Of a stretch of DNA of 64,000 bases, positions 1-47,167 are shown one piece after another. The translations under genes and the position numbers were made by a program. The number at the start of each line of letters is the position of its first letter. The stretch's first letter is position 1. The stretch spans positions 33,351 to 97,350 of the forward strand of contig JBIKVS010000004.1 in the NCBI GenBank assembly GCA_044356725.1, read 5' to 3'. The notes below the pieces were generated by a model. The model was not told the DNA's origin and did not search any database. It saw nothing but the letters and a program-made list of their open reading frames with translations. This DNA comes from Minisyncoccia bacterium. GTDB taxonomy: Bacteria; Patescibacteriota; Minisyncoccia; SW-4-49-11.

Positions 1-373
1 CGGGTATAACCTCTCCTTTGATGGATAAAATATCACCAGCAGTTTTGACAGCTTCTTCAAAATTACCAGTAATTTTTTCTAGAGCTGATAAAAATAAATT
101 TCCAAAATTATGTCCAGTCAATTCTCCACAGTCAAATCTATAGTTGAATAAATGTCTTAGAATTTCAGGTGATTCAGCAAGAGCCACTAGACATTGTCTA
201 ATATCTCCTGGTGGTAAAACTCCCAATTCATCTCTTAGCTTACCAGTAGAACCACCATTATCCACCATATTAACTATAGCTTTAAGATTTAGATTGCTAA
301 ATAATTTTAATCCAGATAAAACAGTGAAAGAGCCAGTTCCTCCACCAATCACCACTATATTTTTATTAGACAT
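1..373 (-). CDS. yvcK: YvcK/CofD-family UDP-GlcNAc-binding gluconeogenesis factor (5' part; runs off window)
   Basis: Manual translation: MSNKNIVVIGGGTGSFTVLSGLK...VDNGGSTGKLRDELGVLPPGDIRQCLVAL...GHNFGNLFLSAL. Not in ORF track because it is truncated. Confidence 0.92.
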   Translation of the reverse strand, partial: MSNKNIVVIGGGTGSFTVLSGLKLFSNLNLKAIVNMVDNGGSTGKLRDELGVLPPGDIRQCLVALAESPEILRHLFNYRFDCGELTGHNFGNLFLSALEKITGNFEEAVKTAGDILSIKGEVIP

Positions 374-393
374 AAACAAAATTTAATAATAAT

Positions 394-440
394 TGTGGAT
401 AACTTGGGTATAAGTCGGGGTTTCTCACAAGTTATCCACA
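394..440. promoter_or_regulatory. DnaA-box cluster, probable oriC core
   Basis: Perfect TGTGGATAA 394-402 and TTATCCACA 432-440, each with a degenerate partner 2 bp away (405-413, 421-429). Flanked by AT-rich DNA, between divergent genes. Confidence 0.7.
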
Positions 441-540
441 AAATGGAATATGATATGATTATAATAAATACATATACATATATTAAATATATATTATTCT
501 TTAGCTGATAGCAAGATTAGATTATTGAAAAGTAAATGAA

Positions 541-1803
541 ATGCAGAATAAAATTAAATTATTTATATATACTAGTATAGGCATAAGTTTGCCATTTTTG
601 ATAAGGACAACCTTATTTGAATATAATATTAGAAATATTAGTTCTCCGTATGCAACTATATATTTACATAGTCTAGATATAATCTTTCTTATAGCTATAT
701 TCTTTTTTTGGTGGAAAACTAAAAATCTACCATTTAGTGATATAAAAAATGTGGATAAGTTATGGATAACTTTATTTTCTCTTATATTTTTACACTTGTT
801 TTGGGTAAAATATCCTCTTTTGACTTGGGTTTCTGGAATGAGATTTTATTTAGGACTAGCCTTGATTTGGTATATAAGTAGATTTCAATATTTAGCCAGA
901 GACCTGAAATACACTATAAACGGACTCTTTATTGGGATGTTAGCTCAAGCTATTATAGTTATAGCTCAATTTGGATTACAAAAAAATCTTGGATTACCTC
1001 TTGTGATAGAACCGGTTTTATCTAATAGTATTGCAGGTGTGGCTAAAGTTGATATTTTTAACAATACCTTTATAAGGGGTTATGGAACTTTTCCACATCC
1101 TAATATATTGGGTTATGTTGGTATATTAGCTTTAATTTTGTTATATGCTCAAAAACTAGGCAGAAAACTATCTATAATAATTTACTCGGCTACTATTATT
1201 ATTGCAGGACTTATAGATCATTATATCTTAACCTCAATACAAGCTTTTGGGATATCTATTTTGACAGCAACATATCTTTTATACGCTAGATTAGATGGAT
1301 TTGGTAAGGTTTTTCGTAAATTTATAATTCTTATTCTACACCTTTTAATCTTACTTAGTTTTTCTAAAACGGCTATAGCATTGCTTTTAGCGTTAGACTT
1401 AGTATATTTGACAACATCGACTCAAAAGTCAATGTTCCACGTGGAACAATTTCAAAGAATATTAAAATCCCTGCCAAGATTATTCGTCAACGCAATGTCC
1501 GTATCGGGAATCATATTCTTATGGATTATTCCATATGCACAAATTATAGACACCATAACCAAAAGGTTTCTATATGTACAGGATGCTTTTCAAATGATAG
1601 GTTCTAATTTATTCTTTGGAGTTGGGTTGGGGCAGTATGTTATAAATTTATCTGATAATCGTGAATTATGGCAATATGAGCCGGTGCATAATATACTTTT
1701 ATTACTATGGAGCGAGCTTGGCTTTATTGGACTTAGTCTTATAATAGTAATTTTTTGTGTGGAATGTTACACTTATGTATATGGATACAAAAAACAAAGG
1801 TGA
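541..1803 (+). CDS. O-antigen ligase (Wzy_C)-family membrane protein
   Basis: Multi-TM protein with motifs RGYGTFPHPNILG and GVGLGQY...PVHNILLLLWSELGFIG. Confidence 0.8.
   Translation: MQNKIKLFIYTSIGISLPFLIRTTLFEYNIRNISSPYATIYLHSLDIIFLIAIFFFWWKTKNLPFSDIKNVDKLWITLFSLIFLHLFWVKYPLLTWVSGMRFYLGLALIWYISRFQYLARDLKYTINGLFIGMLAQAIIVIAQFGLQKNLGLPLVIEPVLSNSIAGVAKVDIFNNTFIRGYGTFPHPNILGYVGILALILLYAQKLGRKLSIIIYSATIIIAGLIDHYILTSIQAFGISILTATYLLYARLDGFGKVFRKFIILILHLLILLSFSKTAIALLLALDLVYLTTSTQKSMFHVEQFQRILKSLPRLFVNAMSVSGIIFLWIIPYAQIIDTITKRFLYVQDAFQMIGSNLFFGVGLGQYVINLSDNRELWQYEPVHNILLLLWSELGFIGLSLIIVIFCVECYTYVYGYKKQR
1433..1448. promoter_or_regulatory. parS site (inside CDS)
   Basis: Perfect palindrome TGTTCCACGTGGAACA matching the canonical ParB-binding parS. 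Confidence 0.85.
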
Positions 1804-2167
1804 TTTGGGTGAAAGATTGGCGGTAAAATTATTACTATCCAAAGGGTTTGAAATTATAGACCAAAATGTAAGATTGGGTAAGTTCTCAGAACTAGACATT
1901 ATTGCTATTAAGGATAAAGTTTTACACATCATAGAAGTCAAAACTGTGTATAAATGTGGAAAACTTGGGGATAACTTAGATTTTCCTATATATAATATCA
2001 CTCCAAGAAAGATCAAACATCTCAAACTAGGTGCTCAAATGTATGTGCAGAAGCGGAAATTACAAGATATGGATATGACAATAGATGCTATTGCCTGTAT
2101 TGTGGATAATTGTCATAAGAAAAGTTGGATTAAGCTTTATCCTAATATTCTAGAGGGGCTTGACTAA
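1781..2167 (+). CDS. YraN/UPF0102 family putative endonuclease
   Basis: KGDLGERLAVKLL..KGFEII..N.R....ELDIIA....LHIIEVKT. Start placed at ATG 1781. Confidence 0.85.
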   Translation: MDTKNKGDLGERLAVKLLLSKGFEIIDQNVRLGKFSELDIIAIKDKVLHIIEVKTVYKCGKLGDNLDFPIYNITPRKIKHLKLGAQMYVQKRKLQDMDMTIDAIACIVDNCHKKSWIKLYPNILEGLD

Positions 2168-2169
2168 AT

Positions 2170-2185
2170 TGTTCCACGTGGAACA
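2170..2185. promoter_or_regulatory. parS site
   Basis: Second identical TGTTCCACGTGGAACA palindrome, intergenic. Confidence 0.88.
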
Positions 2186-2286
2186 ATGGCGAAATATTGA
2201 AAAATAAAAGTTTTTACAGTACAATTATATTTATCATTTAATTCAAAGATCAGAATTATTGAACAGTATAAATAATAGATTTTAAT

Positions 2287-3420
2287 ATGGACAAAATAGA
2301 AAAGATTTTTACAGAAGCTATGGCTCTTGGAGATATTAAGGTAAATGGAGATAGAGTTTGGGACTTTCAGGTTAAAAATCCAGCTATTTGGCAAAGAATG
2401 CTGAAAGATGGTTCAATGGGTGTCGGTGAGGGGTATGTAGAAGGTTGGTGGGATGTAGAGGCTTTGGATGAATTCTTATTTAGAATAAGAAAATATAAAG
2501 TTTTGGATGCTTTATCTGATGTTTTTGGGGGTTCTTGGCAAAATCGACTATATGTTTTACAAAGTAAGGTTTTGAATTTACAAGATAAAGAAAAAAGTAA
2601 GAGAGTAGCTAAAGAGCATTATGATATAGGGAATGATTTGTATACTAGAATGCTTGATCCTTATATGCAATATACCTGTGCTTATTGGAAAAATGCTGAT
2701 AATTTAAATCAAGCTCAAGAGAATAAATTAGATTTGATTTGCCGTAAATTAAAGTTAGAAAAAGGAATGAGAGTACTAGACATTGGTTGTGGTTGGGGCG
2801 GTTTATTGAAGTTTGCTTCAGAGAGATATGGTGTTATTGGAGTTGGGATTACTATTTCACAAGAGCAACAAAAATTAGCTCAAGATACTGTTAAGGAGCT
2901 TCCAATAGAAATTGTTTTAGCTGATTATAGAGAATATTCATCAGAGCCTTTTGATAGGGTGGTTTCAGTTGGGATGTTAGAGCATGTAGGGTATAAAAAT
3001 TATAAAGAGTATATGGAGGCTGTGAATAAGAATCTAAAAGATGATGGTTTAGCTCTTTTACATACTATTGGAGATAGTGTTTCTACTACCACTACTGAAC
3101 CTTGGATAGACAAATATATATTCCCAGGAGGTCAAATACCATCTTTGCAACAATTATCTAAATCTTGGGAAAGCATATTAACTATACAAGATTTGCATAA
3201 TATTGGACCAGATTATGACCTTACTCTGATGGCTTGGTATGAGAATTTCACACAATCTTGGCCAGAGTTAAAAGATAAATACGGAGAAGAGTTTTATAGA
3301 CTATGGGAATATTATCTTTTGAGTTGCGCTGGTAGTTTTAGGTCTGGATATCTACAGTTGTGGCAAATGGTATTCACTAAGCAATATAATCGACTAGAAA
3401 GATACGAAGCTGAGAGATAG
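2287..3420 (+). CDS. cfa: Cyclopropane-fatty-acyl-phospholipid synthase
   Basis: HYDIGNDLY..MLDPYMQYTCAYW, VLDIGCGWGG, VSVGMLEHVG, WIDKYIFPGG. Confidence 0.95.
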   Translation: MDKIEKIFTEAMALGDIKVNGDRVWDFQVKNPAIWQRMLKDGSMGVGEGYVEGWWDVEALDEFLFRIRKYKVLDALSDVFGGSWQNRLYVLQSKVLNLQDKEKSKRVAKEHYDIGNDLYTRMLDPYMQYTCAYWKNADNLNQAQENKLDLICRKLKLEKGMRVLDIGCGWGGLLKFASERYGVIGVGITISQEQQKLAQDTVKELPIEIVLADYREYSSEPFDRVVSVGMLEHVGYKNYKEYMEAVNKNLKDDGLALLHTIGDSVSTTTTEPWIDKYIFPGGQIPSLQQLSKSWESILTIQDLHNIGPDYDLTLMAWYENFTQSWPELKDKYGEEFYRLWEYYLLSCAGSFRSGYLQLWQMVFTKQYNRLERYEAER

Positions 3421-3489
3421 AAACTTTAATGGTGAATTACTCTCTTCTTGTCAAAATTCTAAAAATAAGATATAATGATTTCACTATCA

Positions 3490-3574
3490 GCTAGGGTGGC
3501 GGAATGGTAGACGCAACGGACTTAAAATCCGTCGGTGATTAAACACTGTGAGGGTTCAAGTCCCTCTCCTAGTA
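3490..3574 (+). tRNA. tRNA-Leu(UAA)
   Basis: Cloverleaf; anticodon arm ACGGA-CTTAAAA-TCCGT; long variable arm; GGTTCAAGTCC T-arm; CCA not encoded. Confidence 0.95.
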
Positions 3575-3745
3575 CAAATTATAGAAACAAAAAAGCAATA
3601 GTCAGTTTTGACTATTGCTCAGGACTTGAAGGTCGGAGCGATGTGTGAGTTTGTGCGAAGCACAAGGCGAACACCGCGAGACGGGGTCGCGAGAATTTTC
3701 CGTCAGGAAAATTACTTGTGACCAAGTCCCTCTCCTAGTACAAAT
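3557..3745 (+). repeat. 23-bp direct repeat of the tRNA-Leu 3' end flanking a structured 143-bp insert
   Basis: caagtccctctcctagtacaaat at 3557-3579 and 3723-3745. Confidence 0.85.
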
Positions 3746-3777
3746 AGAGAAGCAGTCCGTTTGGACTGTTTTTTAAT

Positions 3778-4074
3778 TCCCCTCTTGAAGGGTGTCCCAA
3801 AGGGGCGGGGTGGATGGATTTATAAAACACAGGTGACATAAGGTCGCCCCTACGGGATGAGTGTAAAGCAAATGTCATTGCCTGCTTTAGGCAGAGATGT
3901 CTCCATTGAGCGACCGAAAATACTGTCCTCCCTTGGGGGAGGTGTCACGAAGTGACGGAGGAGGACAAAAAGCTCAAGTTTCAAAATACTTCCACCCCGT
4001 CCAGCGAAGCTGTCCACCCCCTCAATTTATCTCCATCCCTACGGGAGGTAAACCCGTAGGCAGAGAGGGGAATT
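3778..4074. repeat. Cluster of REP-like palindromic repeats
   Basis: Two-hairpin repeats at 3778-3814 (+), 3924-3967 (+) and 3991-4074 (-), plus GTAG-type REP ggtgacataaggtcgcccctac at 3832-3853. Confidence 0.8.
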
Positions 4075-4120
4075 TAAGGCAACTGAAAGATCGTTCTCTC
4101 CTAGTATATCTTTAAAATAT

Positions 4121-4206
4121 AGACAAAAGTTTCAAAATATGGTATGTTTCTGATTGTACGGACTCTAGAGCAATTTAGAGTCAAATTTTCTCTACCCTGA
4201 GGAGGG
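4121..4206 (+). promoter_or_regulatory. Conserved cassette leader copy 1 (promoter, GNRA hairpin, SD)
   Basis: 78/86 nt identical to 4801-4886. Confidence 0.85.
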
Positions 4207-4209
4207 GTT

Positions 4210-4659
4210 ATGTCTAACTCTCAATCGGATATAGATCCATTTGAAGAAGCACAATTTTTCATTCCCAACTCATCATACTTTAGTAGATTGTATTGTTTGG
4301 ATTATATACTTACAAAACTTGATAGGGAACATAGAAGAATGGCTTTAAATATTTCTGATGACTCTAAACTTGCATTTGAAGGTGCTAATATACAACCTCC
4401 TGAGTATATTTATATTAAATTCATTGAAGAGTGGGAGTTAAGTGATAGTGATGTCCTGCACTTTGATTATCAGAGAAGAGGAGGAATTATCCCCAAATGG
4501 GGTCCTGGTGAAAAGTCGAAAGAATCACTTTTGCACATTGGGGCAATTATAAGGTTAAATCTTTTATATCAAATTAGAATGATAGGGCCAATAGATCCTA
4601 GCCCAAATGACTGTGAGTGGAGAAGAGTAGGAAAGATTGAAGTGGTAAAGCAAAGTTAA
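4210..4659 (+). CDS. Orphan hypothetical protein (cassette 1)
   Basis: 149-aa ORF with own promoter, GAGGAGG SD and terminator. Confidence 0.75.
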   Translation: MSNSQSDIDPFEEAQFFIPNSSYFSRLYCLDYILTKLDREHRRMALNISDDSKLAFEGANIQPPEYIYIKFIEEWELSDSDVLHFDYQRRGGIIPKWGPGEKSKESLLHIGAIIRLNLLYQIRMIGPIDPSPNDCEWRRVGKIEVVKQS

Positions 4660-4674
4660 TAAGTGTTTTCATTT

Positions 4675-4716
4675 CCCCCGCGTGCGATGCGGGGGTTTTT
4701 ATTTTCGACTATTTAT
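4675..4716 (+). terminator. Intrinsic terminator, cassette copy 1
   Basis: cccccgcgtgcgatgcgggggtttttattttcgactatttat, identical to 5265-5306. Confidence 0.85.
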
Positions 4717-4800
4717 TCACTCTCTCCACCACTTCCTAAACTTAAAGTATAGGAGGAACTTAAAGCCCTACGACAAGAATAGATTATCTCTTCGCAATAT

Positions 4801-4886
4801 TGACAAAAGTTTCAAAATATGATATGTTTCTGTTTGTCCAGGCTCTAAAGTAATTTAGAGTCAAATTTTCTCTACCCTGAGGAGGG
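4801..4886 (+). promoter_or_regulatory. Conserved cassette leader copy 2
   Basis: TTGACA..TGATATGTT promoter, GGCTCTAAA-GTAA-TTTAGAGTC hairpin, GAGGAGG SD. Confidence 0.85.
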
Positions 4887-4890
4887 TTTT

Positions 4891-5253
4891 ATGTTGAATG
4901 TTCATTCGGCTGCATCAGCTGCAGAATTTTTTGTAGTAGATAGAATAACTGGGAAAGCTAGAATATATGACTTATCTTGTAAAGAGACTAAGGAAACAAG
5001 AATATTTTGGCTTCAAACTAGTCCTCTGAAAACAGAGTATATAGTTCTATTTTGCGATGTAACTTTAGACAATGGCAGAACAATTTCAGGTGGTGGTGAA
5101 ATATCTATTATAAAAGAAGAGTTTGATAAACTCGAAATTAATGATAATGTAGAAATAGGATTTGAGATACGTCAGAATTTCGGAGAACCTAGGAAATTAT
5201 ACCCACTTACATTAAAGTTTATAGATAGAGAAGGAGCTCTCGATCTTTCTTGA
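4891..5253 (+). CDS. Orphan hypothetical protein (cassette 2), possibly OB-fold-like
   Basis: 120-aa ORF with own promoter, SD and terminator. The fold is a guess from the beta-strand pattern. Confidence 0.75.
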   Translation: MLNVHSAASAAEFFVVDRITGKARIYDLSCKETKETRIFWLQTSPLKTEYIVLFCDVTLDNGRTISGGGEISIIKEEFDKLEINDNVEIGFEIRQNFGEPRKLYPLTLKFIDREGALDLS

Positions 5254-5264
5254 TTACCCCCCCC

Positions 5265-5306
5265 CCCCCGCGTGCGATGCGGGGGTTTTTATTTTCGACT
5301 ATTTAT
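5265..5306 (+). terminator. Intrinsic terminator, cassette copy 2, with its 5' C arm extended to a C13 run
   Basis: Identical to 4675-4716; poly-C at 5257-5269. Confidence 0.85.
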
Positions 5307-5355
5307 CTATAATTTGGTATAATAAATATACTTCAAATTAAGAAAATATACTGTT

Positions 5356-7911
5356 ATGCCCTCGCCGATGATGACTCAGTTTTATGAAATCAAAAAATCT
5401 TATCCGAATGATATTTTGTTTTTCCGCCTTGGGGACTTTTATGAAATGTTTGCAGAGGATGCGAAGTTAGCAGCTCCAATACTGGATTTAGTGCTAACAG
5501 CAAGAAAGAATACAGTAGATGGTAGTATTCCAATGTGTGGGGTACCTTATCATTCATCTACTCAATATATTCAAAAACTAATCAAAGCTGGACATTCCGT
5601 AGCTTTATGCGAACAACAAGGATCAGCTCAAGATACTAAAGGTTTAGTCACTAGAAAGGTGGTAAAAGTCATTACTCCGGGGACAGCCTTATTTGAGACT
5701 GAGACAAGTGAATCAAGATATATAGCTAGTATTTATAAACAGAAAGATATTATATATATCGCTTTTGCTGACTTAGGGACTGGAATTTTTGAAGTGGGGG
5801 AATTTAGTTCTCAAGAATTAAAAGATATTTTAAGTTCAAGACAAGTCAAAGAAATTATATTGCCACAAAATAGTGATTTGAGTGAAGAATTAAAAGATTT
5901 GGGTATAAAATTAAGTATAGAGTCAAAGTGGAACTTTCAATTAGAGCGGTCTATTGAGACTTTGACTAAACATTTTGGAGTTACTAGTATGTCCGGATTC
6001 GGTTTTGAAATTGATGATTTACGGTTAGCCCCAGCAGGAGCTTTACTTAATTATCTTATTTATACTCAACAAGAGGATTTGAAGCATATTACAAAATTGC
6101 AAAGCATGAAGTTATCTCGATATATGCGATTAGATGCCCAAACCATTCAAAATTTAGAGTTGTTTTATCTATCAAGAGCTAGTCAAAAGGGAAAAAGTTT
6201 TTATCAAGCTATTAATTATACTAGAAATCCTCTGGGATCTAGAATGTTGAAAAACTGGATATTAGCTCCATTATTAGATATTAAGTCAATTCAAACTCGT
6301 CAGAATCATATACAAAATTATATTCAAAACCCTAGTAAAATTGACCAAATTAGAGATTTATTAGCTCAAATTGCTGATATTGAGAGACTATTAGCTAGAC
6401 TTTCTAGTAATGTCGGCGGACCTAGAGATATGTTATTATTATCCAAAAGTTTTGAATATATTATTAAAGTTTTAGAGATTGATAATGAGGATTATATAAA
6501 GTCTGCTATAAAGGCTTTGAGTCAATTAAACCCTCTACAACAAGAATTGCAAAAAGCTCTACAAGAAAATGTTCCAATATTAGCTCGGGATGGTGGATTC
6601 GTGGCCAAAGGTTATAGAGCAGAAATTGATGAGTTACTAGATTTAAGTCAAGGAGGTAAGGAGTGGCTACTAGAATTACAAACCAAAGAACAAGCGAGAA
6701 CCGGGATTAATTCTCTTAAAGTTAAGTATAATAAGGTCTTTGGATATTATATAGAAATTAGCAATGCTCATAAGAATCAGGTTTTACCAGACAATTATAT
6801 CAAAAAGCAAACTTTAGCTAATGCAGAGCGATATATTACTCCTGAATTAAAAGAATTTGAGGAAAAGATATTAAGTTCAGAGTCTCAACTATTAAATTTA
6901 GAACAAATAGTTTTTGAAGAATTAAGACAAGCTATTATAGCCGAGGCGGAACAAATTTATACTATTGCTGAGACTTTAGCCTATATTGATTGTATACAAG
7001 CTGGGGCCAAATTAGCCCTAGATTGGAATTATATAAAGCCTATAATTACTAAAAAATCTAAATTATATATAGAGGCCGGCCGACATCCAGTTTTGGAGCA
7101 GTTAATTACAGATTATATACCTAATAATTGTAAACTCACCGAACCAAATCACTCTCTAATGTTAATTACAGGTCCTAATATGGGAGGTAAATCTACTTAT
7201 ATTAGGCAAGTAGCTTTGATTGTGCTTCTAGCTCAAATTGGATACTATGTCCCAGCTATTGAGGCTGAGATTGGAATAGTGGATAGAATTTTTACTCGAG
7301 TAGGAGCTTCGGATAATATGAGTGAGGGACAAAGTACTTTTATGGTGGAAATGCTTGAAGTTGCAAATATTTTGCATAATGCTACCAAATCTAGTTTGGT
7401 TATTTTAGATGAAGTCGGTAGAGGCACTTCTACTTATGATGGGATGAGTATAGCCAAGGCTTTGATTGAATATATTCATAATACAATTGGAGCTAGAACT
7501 CTATTTGCGACTCATTATCACGAATTATTAAATTTGGAAGCAGAATTAGAGGGAGTGGTGAATTATCAGGTTTTAATTCAAGACTCTGAGGATGATATTA
7601 TTTTCCTACATCGTATTGAACAAGGTGGAGCTGATAAAAGCTATGGAATTGCCATTGCTAAATTAGCAGGATTTCCAATAGATGTGCTAGAATTAGCTAA
7701 AGGAGCACTTATTCAATATGAACAAAAAAAGTCTCAATTATCTTTTTTACCAACAAATAATCTAAAATCGCCTCAAGATCCAGCAATAAACCCAAAAATT
7801 GAGAAATACAATAATTTATTACAAAATCTGCACTCTTATAATTTGAATAATTTAACTCCGATGCAGGCATTATCTATATTAGATGACTTACAAAAGAATA
7901 ATCCACTATGA
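5356..7911 (+). CDS. mutS: DNA mismatch repair protein MutS
   Basis: FFRLGDFYEMF, ITGPNMGGKSTYIRQ, STFMVEM, DEVGRGTST, FATHYHEL. Confidence 0.98.
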   Translation: MPSPMMTQFYEIKKSYPNDILFFRLGDFYEMFAEDAKLAAPILDLVLTARKNTVDGSIPMCGVPYHSSTQYIQKLIKAGHSVALCEQQGSAQDTKGLVTRKVVKVITPGTALFETETSESRYIASIYKQKDIIYIAFADLGTGIFEVGEFSSQELKDILSSRQVKEIILPQNSDLSEELKDLGIKLSIESKWNFQLERSIETLTKHFGVTSMSGFGFEIDDLRLAPAGALLNYLIYTQQEDLKHITKLQSMKLSRYMRLDAQTIQNLELFYLSRASQKGKSFYQAINYTRNPLGSRMLKNWILAPLLDIKSIQTRQNHIQNYIQNPSKIDQIRDLLAQIADIERLLARLSSNVGGPRDMLLLSKSFEYIIKVLEIDNEDYIKSAIKALSQLNPLQQELQKALQENVPILARDGGFVAKGYRAEIDELLDLSQGGKEWLLELQTKEQARTGINSLKVKYNKVFGYYIEISNAHKNQVLPDNYIKKQTLANAERYITPELKEFEEKILSSESQLLNLEQIVFEELRQAIIAEAEQIYTIAETLAYIDCIQAGAKLALDWNYIKPIITKKSKLYIEAGRHPVLEQLITDYIPNNCKLTEPNHSLMLITGPNMGGKSTYIRQVALIVLLAQIGYYVPAIEAEIGIVDRIFTRVGASDNMSEGQSTFMVEMLEVANILHNATKSSLVILDEVGRGTSTYDGMSIAKALIEYIHNTIGARTLFATHYHELLNLEAELEGVVNYQVLIQDSEDDIIFLHRIEQGGADKSYGIAIAKLAGFPIDVLELAKGALIQYEQKKSQLSFLPTNNLKSPQDPAINPKIEKYNNLLQNLHSYNLNNLTPMQALSILDDLQKNNPL

Positions 7912-9683
7912 TACAATTATTACCCAAGAATATTATCAATCAAATTGCTGCCGGTGAAGTAGTCGAGAGACCAGCCTCTATTGTCAAAGAATTATTAGAA
8001 AATTCTATAGATGCCGGCGCTACTGAAATTAAAATTGAAATTCTAGATGCTGGATTAACCGAAATATCAATTCAAGACAATGGTTCTGGGATTGATAAGG
8101 CTGATTTTGAAAATTTATTCAAAAGGCATGCTACCAGTAAAATCGAGAAAATTGAGGACTTACATAGCTTGTCTACTATGGGTTTTCGAGGAGAGGCTTT
8201 ATCTAGTATTCAAGCCGTAGCTCAGGTAGAACTTATCACTAAGACTGAATCAGATAAGACAGGTTATTATTATAATCCCCATACTACTGAAATTAAAGCA
8301 ATAGCTAAGTCTAATACAGGGACAACTATCACTATTAGAAATCTATTCTATAATGTGCCTGCCCGTAAAAAATTCCTCAAAAGCAATACCACCGAACTCT
8401 CACATATTACCAAAATTATTGAAGAAATTGCTCTAGTAAATCCAGATATAGCTTTTATTTATAAATCTCAAAATAGAGAACTTATCAATGTTAAGACAAG
8501 TGATTTATTAACCAGAACAGTGAACATACTCAAAGTCCAAGAGCCAGATTATTTATTATTAGTCGATTCTCAAAAGCATAATATCAAGGCTATCGGGTAT
8601 ATTGGACATCCTAGAATTTCTAAAAAATCACCCCAATATCATATTTTTATCAATAATCGCCCGGTTATACAGCCTCTCATCAATAAAGCTATTCAACAAG
8701 GTTTTGACACTATGCTAGAAGTCGGTCATTATCCTTTTGCTTTTGTGTCTATTTTTATCCCGCCACAAGAACTCGATGTTAATGTACATCCAAGAAAAAC
8801 CGAAGTCAAATTCACTGACGATAGAGCTATATTTCAAAGTATCAAATATTTAATCAGAGACACCTTACAGCAGTCGGCTTTTGAAGTTATTTTAAAACCA
8901 CAAAACAGTAAACAAGAGACATCTCAAATTAGTCCAAGTTTTAATAGCAATAACCCTAAAAACTATAATTTTAAGCCATATAATCAGACTTATAATAGCA
9001 ACACTAAATCTACAATAGCGGAACCCAATTTTGCTCAATATACTCCTAAACAAATCCTAAAAGCTCAATATAACTTCCACAACATACAGCCAAATTTCAG
9101 GGAATTATTAGAAGCTGAGACTGAAAAACCTAATTTTCTACATATTTTTGACACCTATGTAGTATATCCTAATCAAAAAGGGATAATGATTTTAGACCAA
9201 CATGCTGTACATGAGAAAGTGATTTTAGAGCAATTAATAAATCAAGCAGATACGGTTAAATCACAACCTTTATTATTTCCATTAGCTATCAGTGTACCAC
9301 AATCACAAAAAGATTTTACAATAGAGGTATTAACTCAACTCCCAGGTTTCGAAGCAGATGATTTTGGAGCTAATGAGATTATAATAAGAGCCTTACCGAC
9401 ATTCTTAGCCAAAACTCAAAAGGCAGAAGAGCATATACATACCCTAATTGCTCAAATTCAAGACAGAGGTCATACTATAGAATTATCTGAATTAAGAATA
9501 GAATTATTGAAAACCATAGCTTGTAAATCGGCTATCAAAGCTGGTTATAGTATGACAAAATCAGAAATAGAGGCCTTAATAAAAGATGCAGCTAAGACTG
9601 ACTTTGGATTTGCCTGCTGTCATGGGCGGCCAACTATGGTACAATTAGATCAGGATTGGTTTGAAAAACAGTTCTCAAGATAA
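7908..9683 (+). CDS. mutL: DNA mismatch repair endonuclease MutL
   Basis: IAAGEVVERPASIVKELLENSIDAGA, GFRGEAL, DQHAVHE, ACKSAIK, CCHGRP. Confidence 0.97.
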   Translation: MIQLLPKNIINQIAAGEVVERPASIVKELLENSIDAGATEIKIEILDAGLTEISIQDNGSGIDKADFENLFKRHATSKIEKIEDLHSLSTMGFRGEALSSIQAVAQVELITKTESDKTGYYYNPHTTEIKAIAKSNTGTTITIRNLFYNVPARKKFLKSNTTELSHITKIIEEIALVNPDIAFIYKSQNRELINVKTSDLLTRTVNILKVQEPDYLLLVDSQKHNIKAIGYIGHPRISKKSPQYHIFINNRPVIQPLINKAIQQGFDTMLEVGHYPFAFVSIFIPPQELDVNVHPRKTEVKFTDDRAIFQSIKYLIRDTLQQSAFEVILKPQNSKQETSQISPSFNSNNPKNYNFKPYNQTYNSNTKSTIAEPNFAQYTPKQILKAQYNFHNIQPNFRELLEAETEKPNFLHIFDTYVVYPNQKGIMILDQHAVHEKVILEQLINQADTVKSQPLLFPLAISVPQSQKDFTIEVLTQLPGFEADDFGANEIIIRALPTFLAKTQKAEEHIHTLIAQIQDRGHTIELSELRIELLKTIACKSAIKAGYSMTKSEIEALIKDAAKTDFGFACCHGRPTMVQLDQDWFEKQFSR

Positions 9684-9693
9684 TATAAAATAT

Positions 9694-10629
9694 ATGCAGA
9701 ATCAAAAAACAGTATTAATAGAAGTCGGTATAAGTGCTTTACTTTGGATCACTATTGTGATGATATTAAATTCAGTACTTGGCAGTATACCCACTCTATT
9801 AGGAGGTATATTGGCAGGACTTTTAGGGATAATATATATTTCAACACTATCATTATATGTCTGTATTGAAGATACTCCGAAGCATATTGTACAATTTATA
9901 CTTTTACAAATTTTACCATTAATTTTTATAGGTCTTTGGTTTGACCTAATGACAGCCTTAATTATAGTATTTACATTAATCCTAGGGATACAAACATTAT
10001 TCAAGACTATTAAAGATATGAATGAAAGTGCCAGTGACCATATCAGATTTAGGGTAAAGACTATCGTGCTACCACATACCAAAAGGATGATTATATGGTT
10101 AATGCTCTTAACCTCAGTCTTTATCTACGGGAACACTATTAGAACCAATCCTAATGGTATTTTGCTCGAAGAATCTTTTGTAGGCAATCAAATTCAAGCC
10201 TGGCTTCCTATTGTTCAAGAAATTGCTCCAGACTTTGACCCTAATATCTCAGTTGGAAATTATGTCTCCGAGCAATTAGACTCCCAGATAGAATCTCAAA
10301 ATCTAGATACAAGGCTAATTAATAGAGATACAGCTATTCAAAATCAAATCAGCACTCTATCCAATAGATTCCAAATCCCTATTAATCGAGACACCCCAAT
10401 CATTCAAGCTTTTATCACTTATATTAATAAATTTATTTCTCCTTGGATGAGTGGTCCACTTTGGGGAATTATAGTCTCCTTGATAGTATTTTTGACCTTT
10501 TTACCATTTGTGTGGGTATTCCAAATAGGAATTAGACTTATTACAAATTTGATAAAATATTGGAGCATTAAAACTAATTTAGTTAAATTGAATGTTAAAA
10601 GCACTGAGAAAGAGAGATTGAGGTTGTAG
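9694..10629 (+). CDS. Hypothetical multi-pass membrane protein
   Basis: Several hydrophobic segments; start moved to ATG 9694. Confidence 0.7.
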   Translation: MQNQKTVLIEVGISALLWITIVMILNSVLGSIPTLLGGILAGLLGIIYISTLSLYVCIEDTPKHIVQFILLQILPLIFIGLWFDLMTALIIVFTLILGIQTLFKTIKDMNESASDHIRFRVKTIVLPHTKRMIIWLMLLTSVFIYGNTIRTNPNGILLEESFVGNQIQAWLPIVQEIAPDFDPNISVGNYVSEQLDSQIESQNLDTRLINRDTAIQNQISTLSNRFQIPINRDTPIIQAFITYINKFISPWMSGPLWGIIVSLIVFLTFLPFVWVFQIGIRLITNLIKYWSIKTNLVKLNVKSTEKERLRL

Positions 10630-10646
10630 TTAGTGAATTGAATTAA

Positions 10647-10752
10647 AATTCCCCTCTCTTCCTACGGTTTACCTACCGCAGGCAGGGAGATAAATTGAGG
10701 GGTGCCCATAGGGCAAGGTGGAAAAACCAGGCGACTGAAAGGTCGCCCCTAC
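10647..10752 (+). repeat. Two-hairpin REP-like repeat followed by GTAG-type REP
   Basis: 10647-10722 resembles 3991-4074 (reverse complement); ggcgactgaaaggtcgcccctac at 10730-10752. Confidence 0.8.
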
Positions 10753-10840
10753 GAGAACTATGAACTAAAATGAGGAATATATTATAGACAAAAGTGGGGA
10801 AATATGCTATTGTCTAGGAGTTCCCTCAAACCATCAGGCT

Positions 10841-11131
10841 ATGACCATGTCACAAACTGATAAAGATAGAGCTTTGCAAGAGGCAAGAGGTGCCTACCAG
10901 GATTCTGACGGAGCTCTCGTGGCTCTTGCTGCTGCTGCCAAAGAGTATCAGGACATTTTTGCCCTTACCAGGCACCCCAACTTTAAGGATAGTGTCATGA
11001 CAGGAGAGGTTTTCGCTGATCTGACCCAGGCTAGGCGAAAAATGAAGGAGGCTTTTGATGAAGTCTCTCGCACAGAAACAGCTCTTTTTAAGCAAGTTGC
11101 TAGTCTTCTTGCACCGGCATCGGGTGATTGA
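10841..11131 (+). CDS. Orphan helical hypothetical protein in a standalone transcription unit
   Basis: 96 aa, visibly more GC-rich than its neighbours. TAGACA..TGCTATTGT promoter upstream; hairpin plus T8 downstream (about 11158-11188). Confidence 0.7.
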   Translation: MTMSQTDKDRALQEARGAYQDSDGALVALAAAAKEYQDIFALTRHPNFKDSVMTGEVFADLTQARRKMKEAFDEVSRTETALFKQVASLLAPASGD

Positions 11132-11196
11132 ATCAATCTTCACCTCCACGCCCTCCCCCCCGACCGTTTCGCGGCTCGGGTTTTTTTTACATCAAA

Positions 11197-11223
11197 ATAG
11201 CACTCTGTACAGATTAGTGCTAA
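11197..11223. promoter_or_regulatory. CIRCE element (HrcA operator)
   Basis: ATAGCACTC-N9-TAGTGCTAA versus consensus TTAGCACTC-N9-GAGTGCTAA, directly upstream of dnaJ. Confidence 0.85.
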
Positions 11224-11267
11224 TATTGTATAATATTTGGTATAAAACAATTTTAGATATCAAGTCA

Positions 11268-12371
11268 ATGGCAAAAGATTATTATCAAATACTAGGAGTG
11301 TCCAAAGATGCTAATGAGGCGGAGATCAAAAAGGCCTATCGTAAATTAGCTCATCAATATCACCCAGATAAAAAAGGAGGAGATGAAGCTAAGTTCAAAG
11401 AAATTAATGAGGCTTATCAGACTCTGAGTGATCCTCAAAAACGACAACAATATAATCAATTTGGGTCTAATTATCAGCAAGCAGGTGGAGGTGCTGGAGG
11501 TTTCTCTGGATTTAGTGGAGGACAGGGATTTTCTTTTGACGATATTTTTGGGCAGAGTGGATTTTCTTTTGGAGGAGGAGGTTTTGAGGATGTTTTCTCA
11601 GATGTTTTTGGTGGTGGAAGCTCAAGAGGTGGTTCTAGAAGGCAGTCAAGAGGTAGGGATATTGAGCTTGCCGTAGATATAACTTTAGAAGAAGCTTATG
11701 CGGGAATATCTAAAACTATAGATTTAGAACTTAATTCTACTTGTGATGTTTGTGATGGAACTGGTGCTCAGAATAAAACCACCAAACAATGTCCCACTTG
11801 TAATGGGAATGGTTATATAGATCAGCAAGTCAGAACTATGCTCGGGACATTTAATCAAAGAGCCACTTGTGGCACTTGTCAGGGACGTGGTGTAATTCCA
11901 GAATCTAATTGTAAAGCTTGTCAAGGAACAGGTGTCAAGCGACAGAAGAAATCTATCAAAATTGAGATTCCAAAAGGAATTGCTAATGGCCAAACTTTAG
12001 AAATGCGAGGAGAAGGAGAAGCAGCCCCATTTGGTGGAGCTAATGGAAATATATATATTCATATCAAAGTCAAGCCACATAAAAGATTTGAAAGACGAGG
12101 TGATGATATTCATTTAACTCAAGATATAGTCTATACCACAGCTGTATTAGGTGGAAATGTAGACATAGACACTTTAGCTGGAGAATTAAATTTAAAAATT
12201 CCAAAACATACCCAATCAGGAGAAATATTCAGACTTCGAGAAAAAGGTATGCCTCATTTACAAGGTAGAGGCTATGGAGATATGTATGTCACAGTCAGAA
12301 TTACCACCCCAAAGCATATTTCTCGCCGAGCTCAGCAATTACTAAAAGATTTGCAATTTGAAGGAATGTGA
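11268..12371 (+). CDS. dnaJ: Chaperone DnaJ
   Basis: MAKDYYQILGV, HPD motif, G/F region, four CxxCxGxG repeats; true start at ATG 11268. Confidence 0.97.
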   Translation: MAKDYYQILGVSKDANEAEIKKAYRKLAHQYHPDKKGGDEAKFKEINEAYQTLSDPQKRQQYNQFGSNYQQAGGGAGGFSGFSGGQGFSFDDIFGQSGFSFGGGGFEDVFSDVFGGGSSRGGSRRQSRGRDIELAVDITLEEAYAGISKTIDLELNSTCDVCDGTGAQNKTTKQCPTCNGNGYIDQQVRTMLGTFNQRATCGTCQGRGVIPESNCKACQGTGVKRQKKSIKIEIPKGIANGQTLEMRGEGEAAPFGGANGNIYIHIKVKPHKRFERRGDDIHLTQDIVYTTAVLGGNVDIDTLAGELNLKIPKHTQSGEIFRLREKGMPHLQGRGYGDMYVTVRITTPKHISRRAQQLLKDLQFEGM

Positions 12372-46880: not shown

Positions 46881-47099
46881 TTAATCTTCTAATTTAGCTA
46901 TAATACAATAACACAATACTACTGCTATTAAATATATAATTATATAAAGCAAATTAGCAAAAAATTTTTCCCAATACCCAACAATCAGATGAACAAATAT
47001 AGAAAAATAATTCCAGAAAAGACACAATACAAATATATAAGAAACAACAGTGAGAATATATTTGCACAATTCTAGTAACTCAAATTTAAGATTAGGCAC
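46881..47099 (-). CDS. Small orphan two-TM protein
   Basis: TAGACA..TGATATAAG promoter, GGAG SD, GTG start, downstream hairpin at about 46838-46859. Confidence 0.55.
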   Translation of the reverse strand: MPNLKFELLELCKYILTVVSYIFVLCLFWNYFSIFVHLIVGYWEKFFANLLYIIIYLIAVVLCYCIIAKLED

Positions 47100-47167
47100 G
47101 GAAAGTCTCCGTATAGTACAATAGACTTATATCATATTTTAATACTTTTGTCTATATTTAAATTCCA

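Follow-up and report, generated by a model that had tools for sequence, protein, structure and literature searches.

Why should two neighboring single-gene units keep nearly the same promoter, leader and terminator while the proteins encoded between them are highly divergent? The question is raised by positions 4116–5306 of a 64,000-nt stretch ('the window'; assembly GCA_044356725.1, contig JBIKVS010000004.1, positions 33,351–97,350 of the forward strand) from a Minisyncoccia bacterium, the source genome (G000) being a metagenome-assembled genome (MAG) of the Paceibacteria within the Candidate Phyla Radiation (CPR; 897 kb, 20 contigs, 33% GC, 99% complete). The initial annotation of these units offered two explanations, that conserved flanks exchange the cargo between them or that the open reading frames (ORFs) are under extreme diversifying selection, and it proposed a functional leader RNA. 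We conclude, with a probability of roughly 0.68, that in this genus of freshwater Paceibacteria the interval between a tRNA-Leu gene and mutS is a fixed expression socket, which holds zero, one or two single-gene units (cassettes) and in which the flanks of the units double as recombination arms. Sequence comparison shows a fixed site, conserved expression signals, replacement at the level of the ORF, recombining flanks, the gain of at least one gene of a phage family, and the loss and decay of units; the ORF is the sole part of the unit that is replaced, and the cassette model of the initial annotation is supported.

Conserved flanks and differing cargo at one site

We found that the two window units begin in a direct repeat (4105–4209 and 4785–4889; 105 nt, 88% identity, 680-nt spacing), within which BLAST against the 897-kb genome aligned the leaders over 91 nt with 8 mismatches (4116–4206 vs. 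4796–4886, E = 3.6e-28); the repeat had been annotated as an 86-nt block with 8 mismatches, and is thus confirmed at a slightly greater length. The units end, as annotated, in an identical 42-nt terminator and tail (4675–4716 and 5265–5306; 100% identity, E = 2.6e-18 in the same search), and the 680-bp offset and the ORFs of 149 and 120 aa (4210–4659 and 4891–5253) were likewise borne out. All of these features lie on the plus strand, and the two units are the only full copies in the genome.

Comparison of the leader with relatives, which the initial annotation had suggested, returned, at the corresponding site, these flanks again with differing ORFs between them. A degenerate leader pattern was present in 7 of 17 family genomes, all of them in the genus (7/12), and in none of the five family genomes from four other genera; among 185,579 species-representative genomes it returned only six records, which are those same genus MAGs, and among JGI metagenomes four contigs with the same arrangement. 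The covariance model that had been proposed, built from 13 leaders, matched 3 of 151 genomes of the class, again all in the genus. At every locus, a unit or a pair of units lies directly 5' of mutS and 3' of tRNA-Leu, and the number of complete cassettes never exceeds two in the genomes sampled. On its upstream side, the variable region is anchored in every genome of the genus by tRNA-Leu(taa) (3490–3575, plus strand; ARAGORN and the Rfam tRNA model), which also stands upstream of mutS at empty sites, and the downstream anchor at every locus examined is mutS (5356–7911, plus strand). The site is empty in G001, G003, G010 and G007, where another small terminator precedes the mutS promoter, and G006 retains the 3' half alone of the cassette terminator, a terminator scar.

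Thirteen complete cassettes were counted (L028 repeats the G004 locus and was left out as a separate entry), and their promoters and terminators are conserved around eight cargo types, with ORFs of 92–149 aa for small, putatively cytoplasmic proteins. Type A occurs in G000 and G008 (79% identity), type B in G000 and the metagenome locus mL026 (41% identity), and type C in G009, G002, G005 and a second metagenome locus, mL025, the G002 and G005 copies being disrupted; the other five were each seen once, type D in G009, E in G011, F in G004, G in mL026 and H in a third metagenome locus, mL027. The cargo genes are host-like in composition (31–39% GC), type E is strongly acidic (isoelectric point 4.1) and D, G and one B copy are basic; inspection of the sequences revealed no N-terminal signal-like segment in any cargo.

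All-against-all BLASTP of the cargo proteins linked only pairs within a type at E < 0.01. For A and B, the two window proteins, in which faint collinear motifs had been noted, BLASTP gave a single 32-residue, non-collinear match (E = 0.068) and hhalign a probability of 0.1%, so that the motifs were not sustained and the two are not detectable paralogs. We compared 10 of the 28 possible pairs of types by hhalign, and eight stayed at or below 2.6%: besides A-B, these were B-H (0.1%), A-H (0.8%), B-C (0.7%), B-E (0.1%), B-F (2.6%), C-F (0.5%) and C-D (2.5%); B-D reached 77% over 47 columns and B-G 13%, with collinear alignment. By these comparisons the cargo is largely without homology from species to species, and in at least one case it comes from a phage gene family: type H matches phrog_36680 (E = 1.8e-13, residues 8–105) and has homologs on three viral contigs (36–60% identity; contig GC 47%, 70% and 47%), where they stand in a polycistronic phage context without the cassette flanks. 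The PHROGs scan matched H alone, the nine further cargo proteins included in it giving no match to phrog_36680, and since type H has phage relatives, cargo was gained at least once.

These comparisons bear on the view that the cassettes are tandem paralogs of one ancestral gene, driven apart by extreme diversifying selection while their flanks were kept as regulatory sequence, a view to which we attach very little credence. The ratio of nonsynonymous to synonymous substitution rates (dN/dS), estimated in each case from one pair of short genes, is ~0.86 for B, which would suit it, as would the B-D and B-G alignments, a strand motif (G/N-D-x-V/I-x-V/I-x-F) common to several cargo types, and the small β-barrels found among the ESM Atlas neighbors of A and B, for A at template modeling (TM) scores below 0.5. 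It is opposed by the A-B probability, by the membership of H in a widespread phage family that the other scanned cargo does not match, by the range of lengths and the acidic vs. basic charge, and by the dN/dS of ~0.2 for A (G000 vs. G008), an orphan family that appears to be under purifying selection; B, a tiny and fast-evolving family, appears near-neutral or adaptive. Diversifying (the second of the two original explanations) or relaxed evolution does take place within one cargo family, B, and because B has this ratio and B and D are possibly remote homologs, both explanations contribute, with swapping of cargo between conserved flanks borne out by the eight types in 13 cassettes at the same site.

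A and B are both very small families. Searches of 5.8 billion clusters gave seven matches for A and two for B, and a B profile run against 1.84 billion representatives gave seven, of which five small proteins were kept; P0015, repeat-rich and matched in repeated short stretches, was dropped, as was P0010 (6424 aa, four short stretches), presumed to be alike. Scans of all cargo with Pfam, NCBIfam and PADLOC returned sub-threshold matches alone, and no relatives of A or B were found in viral contigs. AlphaFold2 models of A (from an eight-sequence alignment) and B (three sequences) had mean predicted local distance difference test (pLDDT) scores of 38 and 33, respectively. As a lead, the ESM Atlas model of B (pLDDT 0.75) suggests a small β-barrel, similar at TM ~0.6 to DUF2500, DUF3592, DUF7489 and a viral hypothetical cluster; for A, nothing exceeded TM 0.41. 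Type C is interrupted in G002, where a 32-nt tandem duplication shifts the frame, and in G005, where codon 6 is an in-frame TAA; because two species have it broken, the cargo may be dispensable, with assembly error a possible source of the two disrupted copies among four. We would guess, tentatively, that the cargo consists of small phage-related accessory proteins for defense, exclusion or counter-defense.

Anatomy of the unit and its leader hairpin

Each unit reads, in order, promoter, leader hairpin, Shine-Dalgarno sequence, ORF, C-run and terminator, and is by these sequence signals an independent transcription unit of promoter, gene and terminator, as a phage moron is. In the first window unit, the predicted promoter (4120–4148; TAGACA, 17 nt, TATGTT with the TG of an extended −10 element), of a design kept in 13 of 13 leaders, precedes a hairpin with a 9-bp stem and GCAA loop (4161–4182; from folding and alignment), the ribosome-binding site GAGGAGG (4199–4205; from sequence and alignment) and the type A ORF; in the second, the corresponding features are TTGACA, 17 nt and TATGTT with TG (4800–4828; sequence signal), a 9-bp stem with GTAA loop (4841–4862; folding and alignment), a Shine-Dalgarno sequence (4879–4885) and the type B ORF. 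GAGGAGG lies 4–5 nt upstream of ATG. Homology between units ends within ~4–9 nt of the start codon and restarts at the C-run, which follows the stop codon by 4 to ~50 nt, mostly by less than 30 nt. The terminator consists of a C-run of 5–13, a GC-rich 9-bp stem, a 3-nt loop and a T-run (fold z-score −3.05), its 3' element being a perfect 21-nt hairpin plus T-run; in the window, the first terminator with its tail occupies 4675–4716, and a run of 13 C, the second terminator and its tail occupy 5257–5306. The 15-nt tail after the first terminator duplicates the mutS-proximal tail, the 15 nt that elsewhere lead into the mutS promoter. That promoter (5295–5323; TCGACT, 17 nt, TATAAT with TG) overlaps the tail of the second terminator and is of a form, variant 1, kept in mL025, G002, G005, G006 and mL027. 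The C-run itself (5257–5269) stands at the same place in all cassettes and ranges in length between 5 and 13 C, against a genomic GC of 33%; just five of the C can pair with the G-run, and the tract may be slippage-prone or a recombination junction.

The gap from one terminator to the next promoter is 65–100 nt of repeat-derived spacer. A decayed repetitive element had been annotated before each unit, and this was borne out in part. The sequence just 5' of the first cassette (3985–4104, plus strand) is a GC-rich dispersed repeat, to which 24 other places in the genome match in part, and its word depth in the lake metagenomes (bin 3918–3991) is about twenty-fold that of most flanking bins. The interval 4716–4790 has two short matches alone, within a spacer (4717–4784) that contains a decayed repeat fragment and of which query positions 618–669 were matched in several genomes. 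The 3985–4104 repeat belongs to a widespread family in these bacteria, resembling repetitive extragenic palindromes or miniature inverted-repeat transposable elements (REP/MITE-like), a copy or fragment of which precedes each cassette.

The leader hairpin dominates the predicted fold of both window copies, and the two 9-bp stems that had been annotated fold as claimed and are kept in 13 of 13 leaders through G-U, A-U and G-C changes. Pairing holds in 117 of 117 cells of the alignment, with five of the nine pairs varying and one position occupied by A-U, G-U and G-C in 5, 3 and 5 sequences, and it falls to 51% or less when the 3' partner is shifted by one column. Twelve of the 13 loops are of GNRA type (GCAA, GTAA, GTGA, GAGA or GAAA), the other being TAGA. 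Because the G-U variants would be A-C on the other strand, the constraint falls on the plus-strand RNA; a DNA-palindrome operator was considered and rejected, 16 G-U cells of the 117 being A-C mismatches on the opposite strand. A smaller hairpin said to enclose the Shine-Dalgarno sequence is present in both window copies and was rejected as a conserved structure, 67% of cells being paired across nine copies. In a search of window positions 3300–5400 against Rfam 15 (E ≤ 1), no match to the leader was found and the tRNA alone passed. In Bacillus subtilis, 5'-proximal stem-loops stabilize mRNAs against RNase J. The source genome has two RNase J genes and, in our search of it, no RNase E/G gene; most likely, the leader hairpin would protect the 5' end of the mRNA, with transcription starting a few bases 5' of the stem.

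Partial copies and other units were also seen. A promoter-only third copy lies at 47067–47158 on the minus strand of the window (a weak match of 35 bits to the leader model), with a repeat fragment before it and a 72-aa hydrophobic ORF (46881–47099) after it, and the cassette promoter may travel with the repeat element. In locus L026 (oriented 1018–1530), a cassette promoter is cut off just 5' of the hairpin and followed by unrelated DNA, which includes a 127-aa reverse-strand ORF with a hydrophobic, membrane-like stretch. The same locus (oriented 100–300 and 1590–1860) and L010 contain a second kind of unit with conserved flanks, which has its own promoter (TTGACAGATAGTTT...), GGAGG, a common terminator and interiors of ~70 and ~190 nt; its ORFs span only 4–5 codons, it has no Rfam match, and possible identities are a gene for a small RNA and a cassette, now decayed, from a different series.

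Recombination, loss and the origin of the site

We built a tree from the first 419 residues of MutS and set the cargo against it. Sister taxa differ in what they carry, G000 having A and B vs. C in mL025, and G011 having E vs. G and B in mL026; G008 has A, G009 has C and D, and G003 and G010 are empty. The first window leader (W_a) is 93% identical to that of mL025, which carries cargo C, and 78% identical to that of G008, which shares cargo A, and the second (W_b) is nearest to the leaders of mL026. Leaders thus track species, not cargo, and the two window units are therefore not a recent local duplication; the terminators of the window are nevertheless 100% identical, against 89% for its leaders, suggesting that the 3' ends have undergone conversion or recombination. 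The upstream units of G009 (C) and mL026 (G) have a third tail variant in common, and the downstream units of the same loci (D and B, respectively) share the mutS-proximal tail. These patterns indicate that the flanks recombine. The empty sites, the G006 scar and the identical window terminators may be indirect signs of such recombination. In G004 (L013) and L028, both mutS-promoter variants of the genus occur in one locus: between the cassette and mutS, the promoter of mutS is present twice together with its first 16 codons, a 122-aa reverse-strand ORF separates the copies, and the arrangement is a footprint of recombination that extended into mutS.

One can also suppose that an ancestral tandem array held many cassettes and that each species kept zero to two after deletions between repeated flanks, with no lateral exchange and no ongoing swapping. 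A deletion of this kind restores an intact cassette with the mutS-proximal tail, and it would fit the common tails, the empty sites, the terminator scar of G006 and the truncated leader of mL026; the host-like GC of all cargo agrees with it, as does the synonymous divergence (dS) between G000 and G008, which is 0.64 for cargo A and 0.76 for the neighboring yraN (2.2 for mutS and 1.6 for a wzy-like gene). We nevertheless hold this history to be unlikely: it needs at least eight cassettes in the ancestor of genomes of 0.6–0.9 Mb in which the sampled maximum is two, it does not supply the gain that type H implies, and, leaders tracking species and not cargo, it would need flank recombination or conversion anyway. 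The low dS of cargo A had been considered as support for recent transfer, and was rejected as such with yraN similarly low.

A third origin, the remnant at tRNA-Leu of a prophage, an integron-like or another site-specific element, with the cassettes as its morons or gene cassettes and a dedicated recombinase to move them, draws on the position of the site. The terminal 23 nt at the 3' end of tRNA-Leu (3557–3579) recur at 3723–3745 on the plus strand, 166 nt on, in the repeat search, enclosing a short segment; G010 has a comparable duplication of the tRNA end and G007 a copy of it, and the window duplicate, which is att-like, looks like the scar of an old integration. Modules that run independently from promoter to terminator, as morons are defined in PMC3594210, and one phage-related cargo would also accord with such an element. 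Yet the flanks have no phage or recombinase gene (none in window positions 1–12371), and the sole tyrosine recombinase found in the genome (PF00589) is on another contig, C19; the leader pattern is absent from 2.9 million IMG/VR viral contigs; the cassettes occupy one locus alone; and each has its own promoter, unlike integron cassettes. We therefore give this origin scarcely any credence.

Against these alternatives, the fixed socket with recombining flanks would work as follows. A strong sigma-70-type promoter with an extended −10 would drive each unit, and the conserved flanks would give any inserted ORF high, insulated expression while serving as homology arms for RecA-dependent recombination, which would delete, duplicate or swap cargo and leave mutS undisturbed; exchange could occur within one genome or with DNA imported through ComEC and DprA. 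ComEC, DprA and RecA are all present in the genome.

Several observations weigh against the socket. There are at most two full copies per genome, which limits shuffling within a genome, and the cassette units are known from sequence signals alone. B and D, and perhaps G, may be remote homologs, in which case part of the diversity would be divergence, and a fold shared by all cargo is possible, the AlphaFold models of A and B being too poor to judge it. Lateral arrival of cargo and sorting of an ancestral array are both compatible with flank recombination, and because the dS of cargo A is close to that of yraN, there is no clear sign of recent transfer. In three lake-water DNA runs (analyzed, like one RNA run, as contigs), no cassette-skipping or circular joints or other recombination intermediates are listed, and these contigs break at the repeated leader and terminator; the RNA run covers a relative's flanks alone, with many differences and no cover over the cassettes, and is uninformative on expression or variants. 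As for the leader RNA, the shuffle control equals the observed covariation score in 10 of 500 shuffles, and the covariation comes from 13 related sequences, mainly as G-U transitions, both sides changing in one of the nine pairs. The initial annotation would have abandoned the cassette model had there been only two copies, ordinary paralogs and invariant cargo among relatives; the first alone was found, and within this genome.

The genes around the site are a wzy-like gene, yraN, cfa, mutS, mutL and dnaJ. The cyclopropane-fatty-acid synthase gene (2287–3420) lies between yraN and tRNA-Leu; it is present in G000, G001, G003, G005 and G010 and absent at the same place in G002, G004, G008, G009 and G011.

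The proposed socket among known systems

To our knowledge, little is known of how CPR bacteria, with their very small genomes, acquire and test genes, and the literature we searched, supplementary files not being covered, held no account of a locus of this kind in Patescibacteria. If the socket is what we propose, it is a dedicated, insulated site at which single ORFs are replaced with near-ORF precision, and a homology-driven route by which orphan and phage-derived genes could be sampled beside essential repair genes without damage to them. Its promoter, hairpin, Shine-Dalgarno sequence and terminator would together make up a portable expression module of natural origin, suited to an uncultured lineage, and new small-protein functions may be sought among the eight cargo families. 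A further-reaching version, possible in our view though doubtful, is that the socket needs no recombinase, its promoter-leader and terminator being kept as homology arms through which members of a natural population continually swap small phage-like proteins, for defense or counter-defense, by natural competence and RecA, as the chromosomal counterpart of the PeSL (promoter-early stem-loop) elements of phage T4, in genomes too small for large defense islands.

Integron arrays are tandem, single-ORF, unrelated cassettes at one platform, each ending in a hairpin-forming element. The units described here are likewise tandem single-ORF cassettes at one platform, each with a 3' hairpin; however, there is no adjacent integrase (window positions 1–12371), every cassette has a promoter whereas integron cassettes are promoterless, and the 3' element is a plain 9-bp terminator and not an attC site, as judged with no formal attC model run. 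Capsule and O-antigen loci, and the polymorphic mutS-rpoS region of enterobacteria, are replacement loci or idiomorphs exchanged by flank homology. They share with the socket non-homologous sequences between conserved flanks at one position, and the mutS-rpoS region also adjoins mutS; here, in contrast, a single small ORF is swapped, with a boundary only a few bases from its start codon and a short 3' untranslated region leading to the terminator, and regulatory elements take the place of genes as flanks.

Morons, as PMC3594210 describes them, are transcribed independently, each from its own promoter and to its own terminator, and like them the cassettes are single-gene independent units, patchy in distribution and often of unknown or host-benefit function; unlike them, the cassettes have no surrounding prophage, and all share one type of promoter, leader and terminator at one chromosomal site. 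The closest known system is that of the PeSL elements of T4-type phages, which PMC2839356 and PMC4122927 describe as conserved blocks of ~100 nt, with a strong sigma-70 promoter and a terminator stem-loop, around unrelated ORFans in a variable region. In these phages, the flanks are both expression signals and sites of homologous recombination, whole ORFs are inserted, deleted or replaced, and mini-circles were found by inverse PCR. A promoter and terminator around unrelated ORFs are common to both systems; the present one differs in that it lies on a cellular CPR chromosome among housekeeping neighbors and not in a phage, has one fixed locus with at most two units where PeSL elements number dozens across hyperplastic regions, keeps terminator and promoter 65–100 nt apart where those of PeSL are fused, and has an extra conserved RNA hairpin in the leader. 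If the socket holds, regulatory cassettes that act as recombination modules, as in the PeSL concept, would occur in cells as well as in phages.

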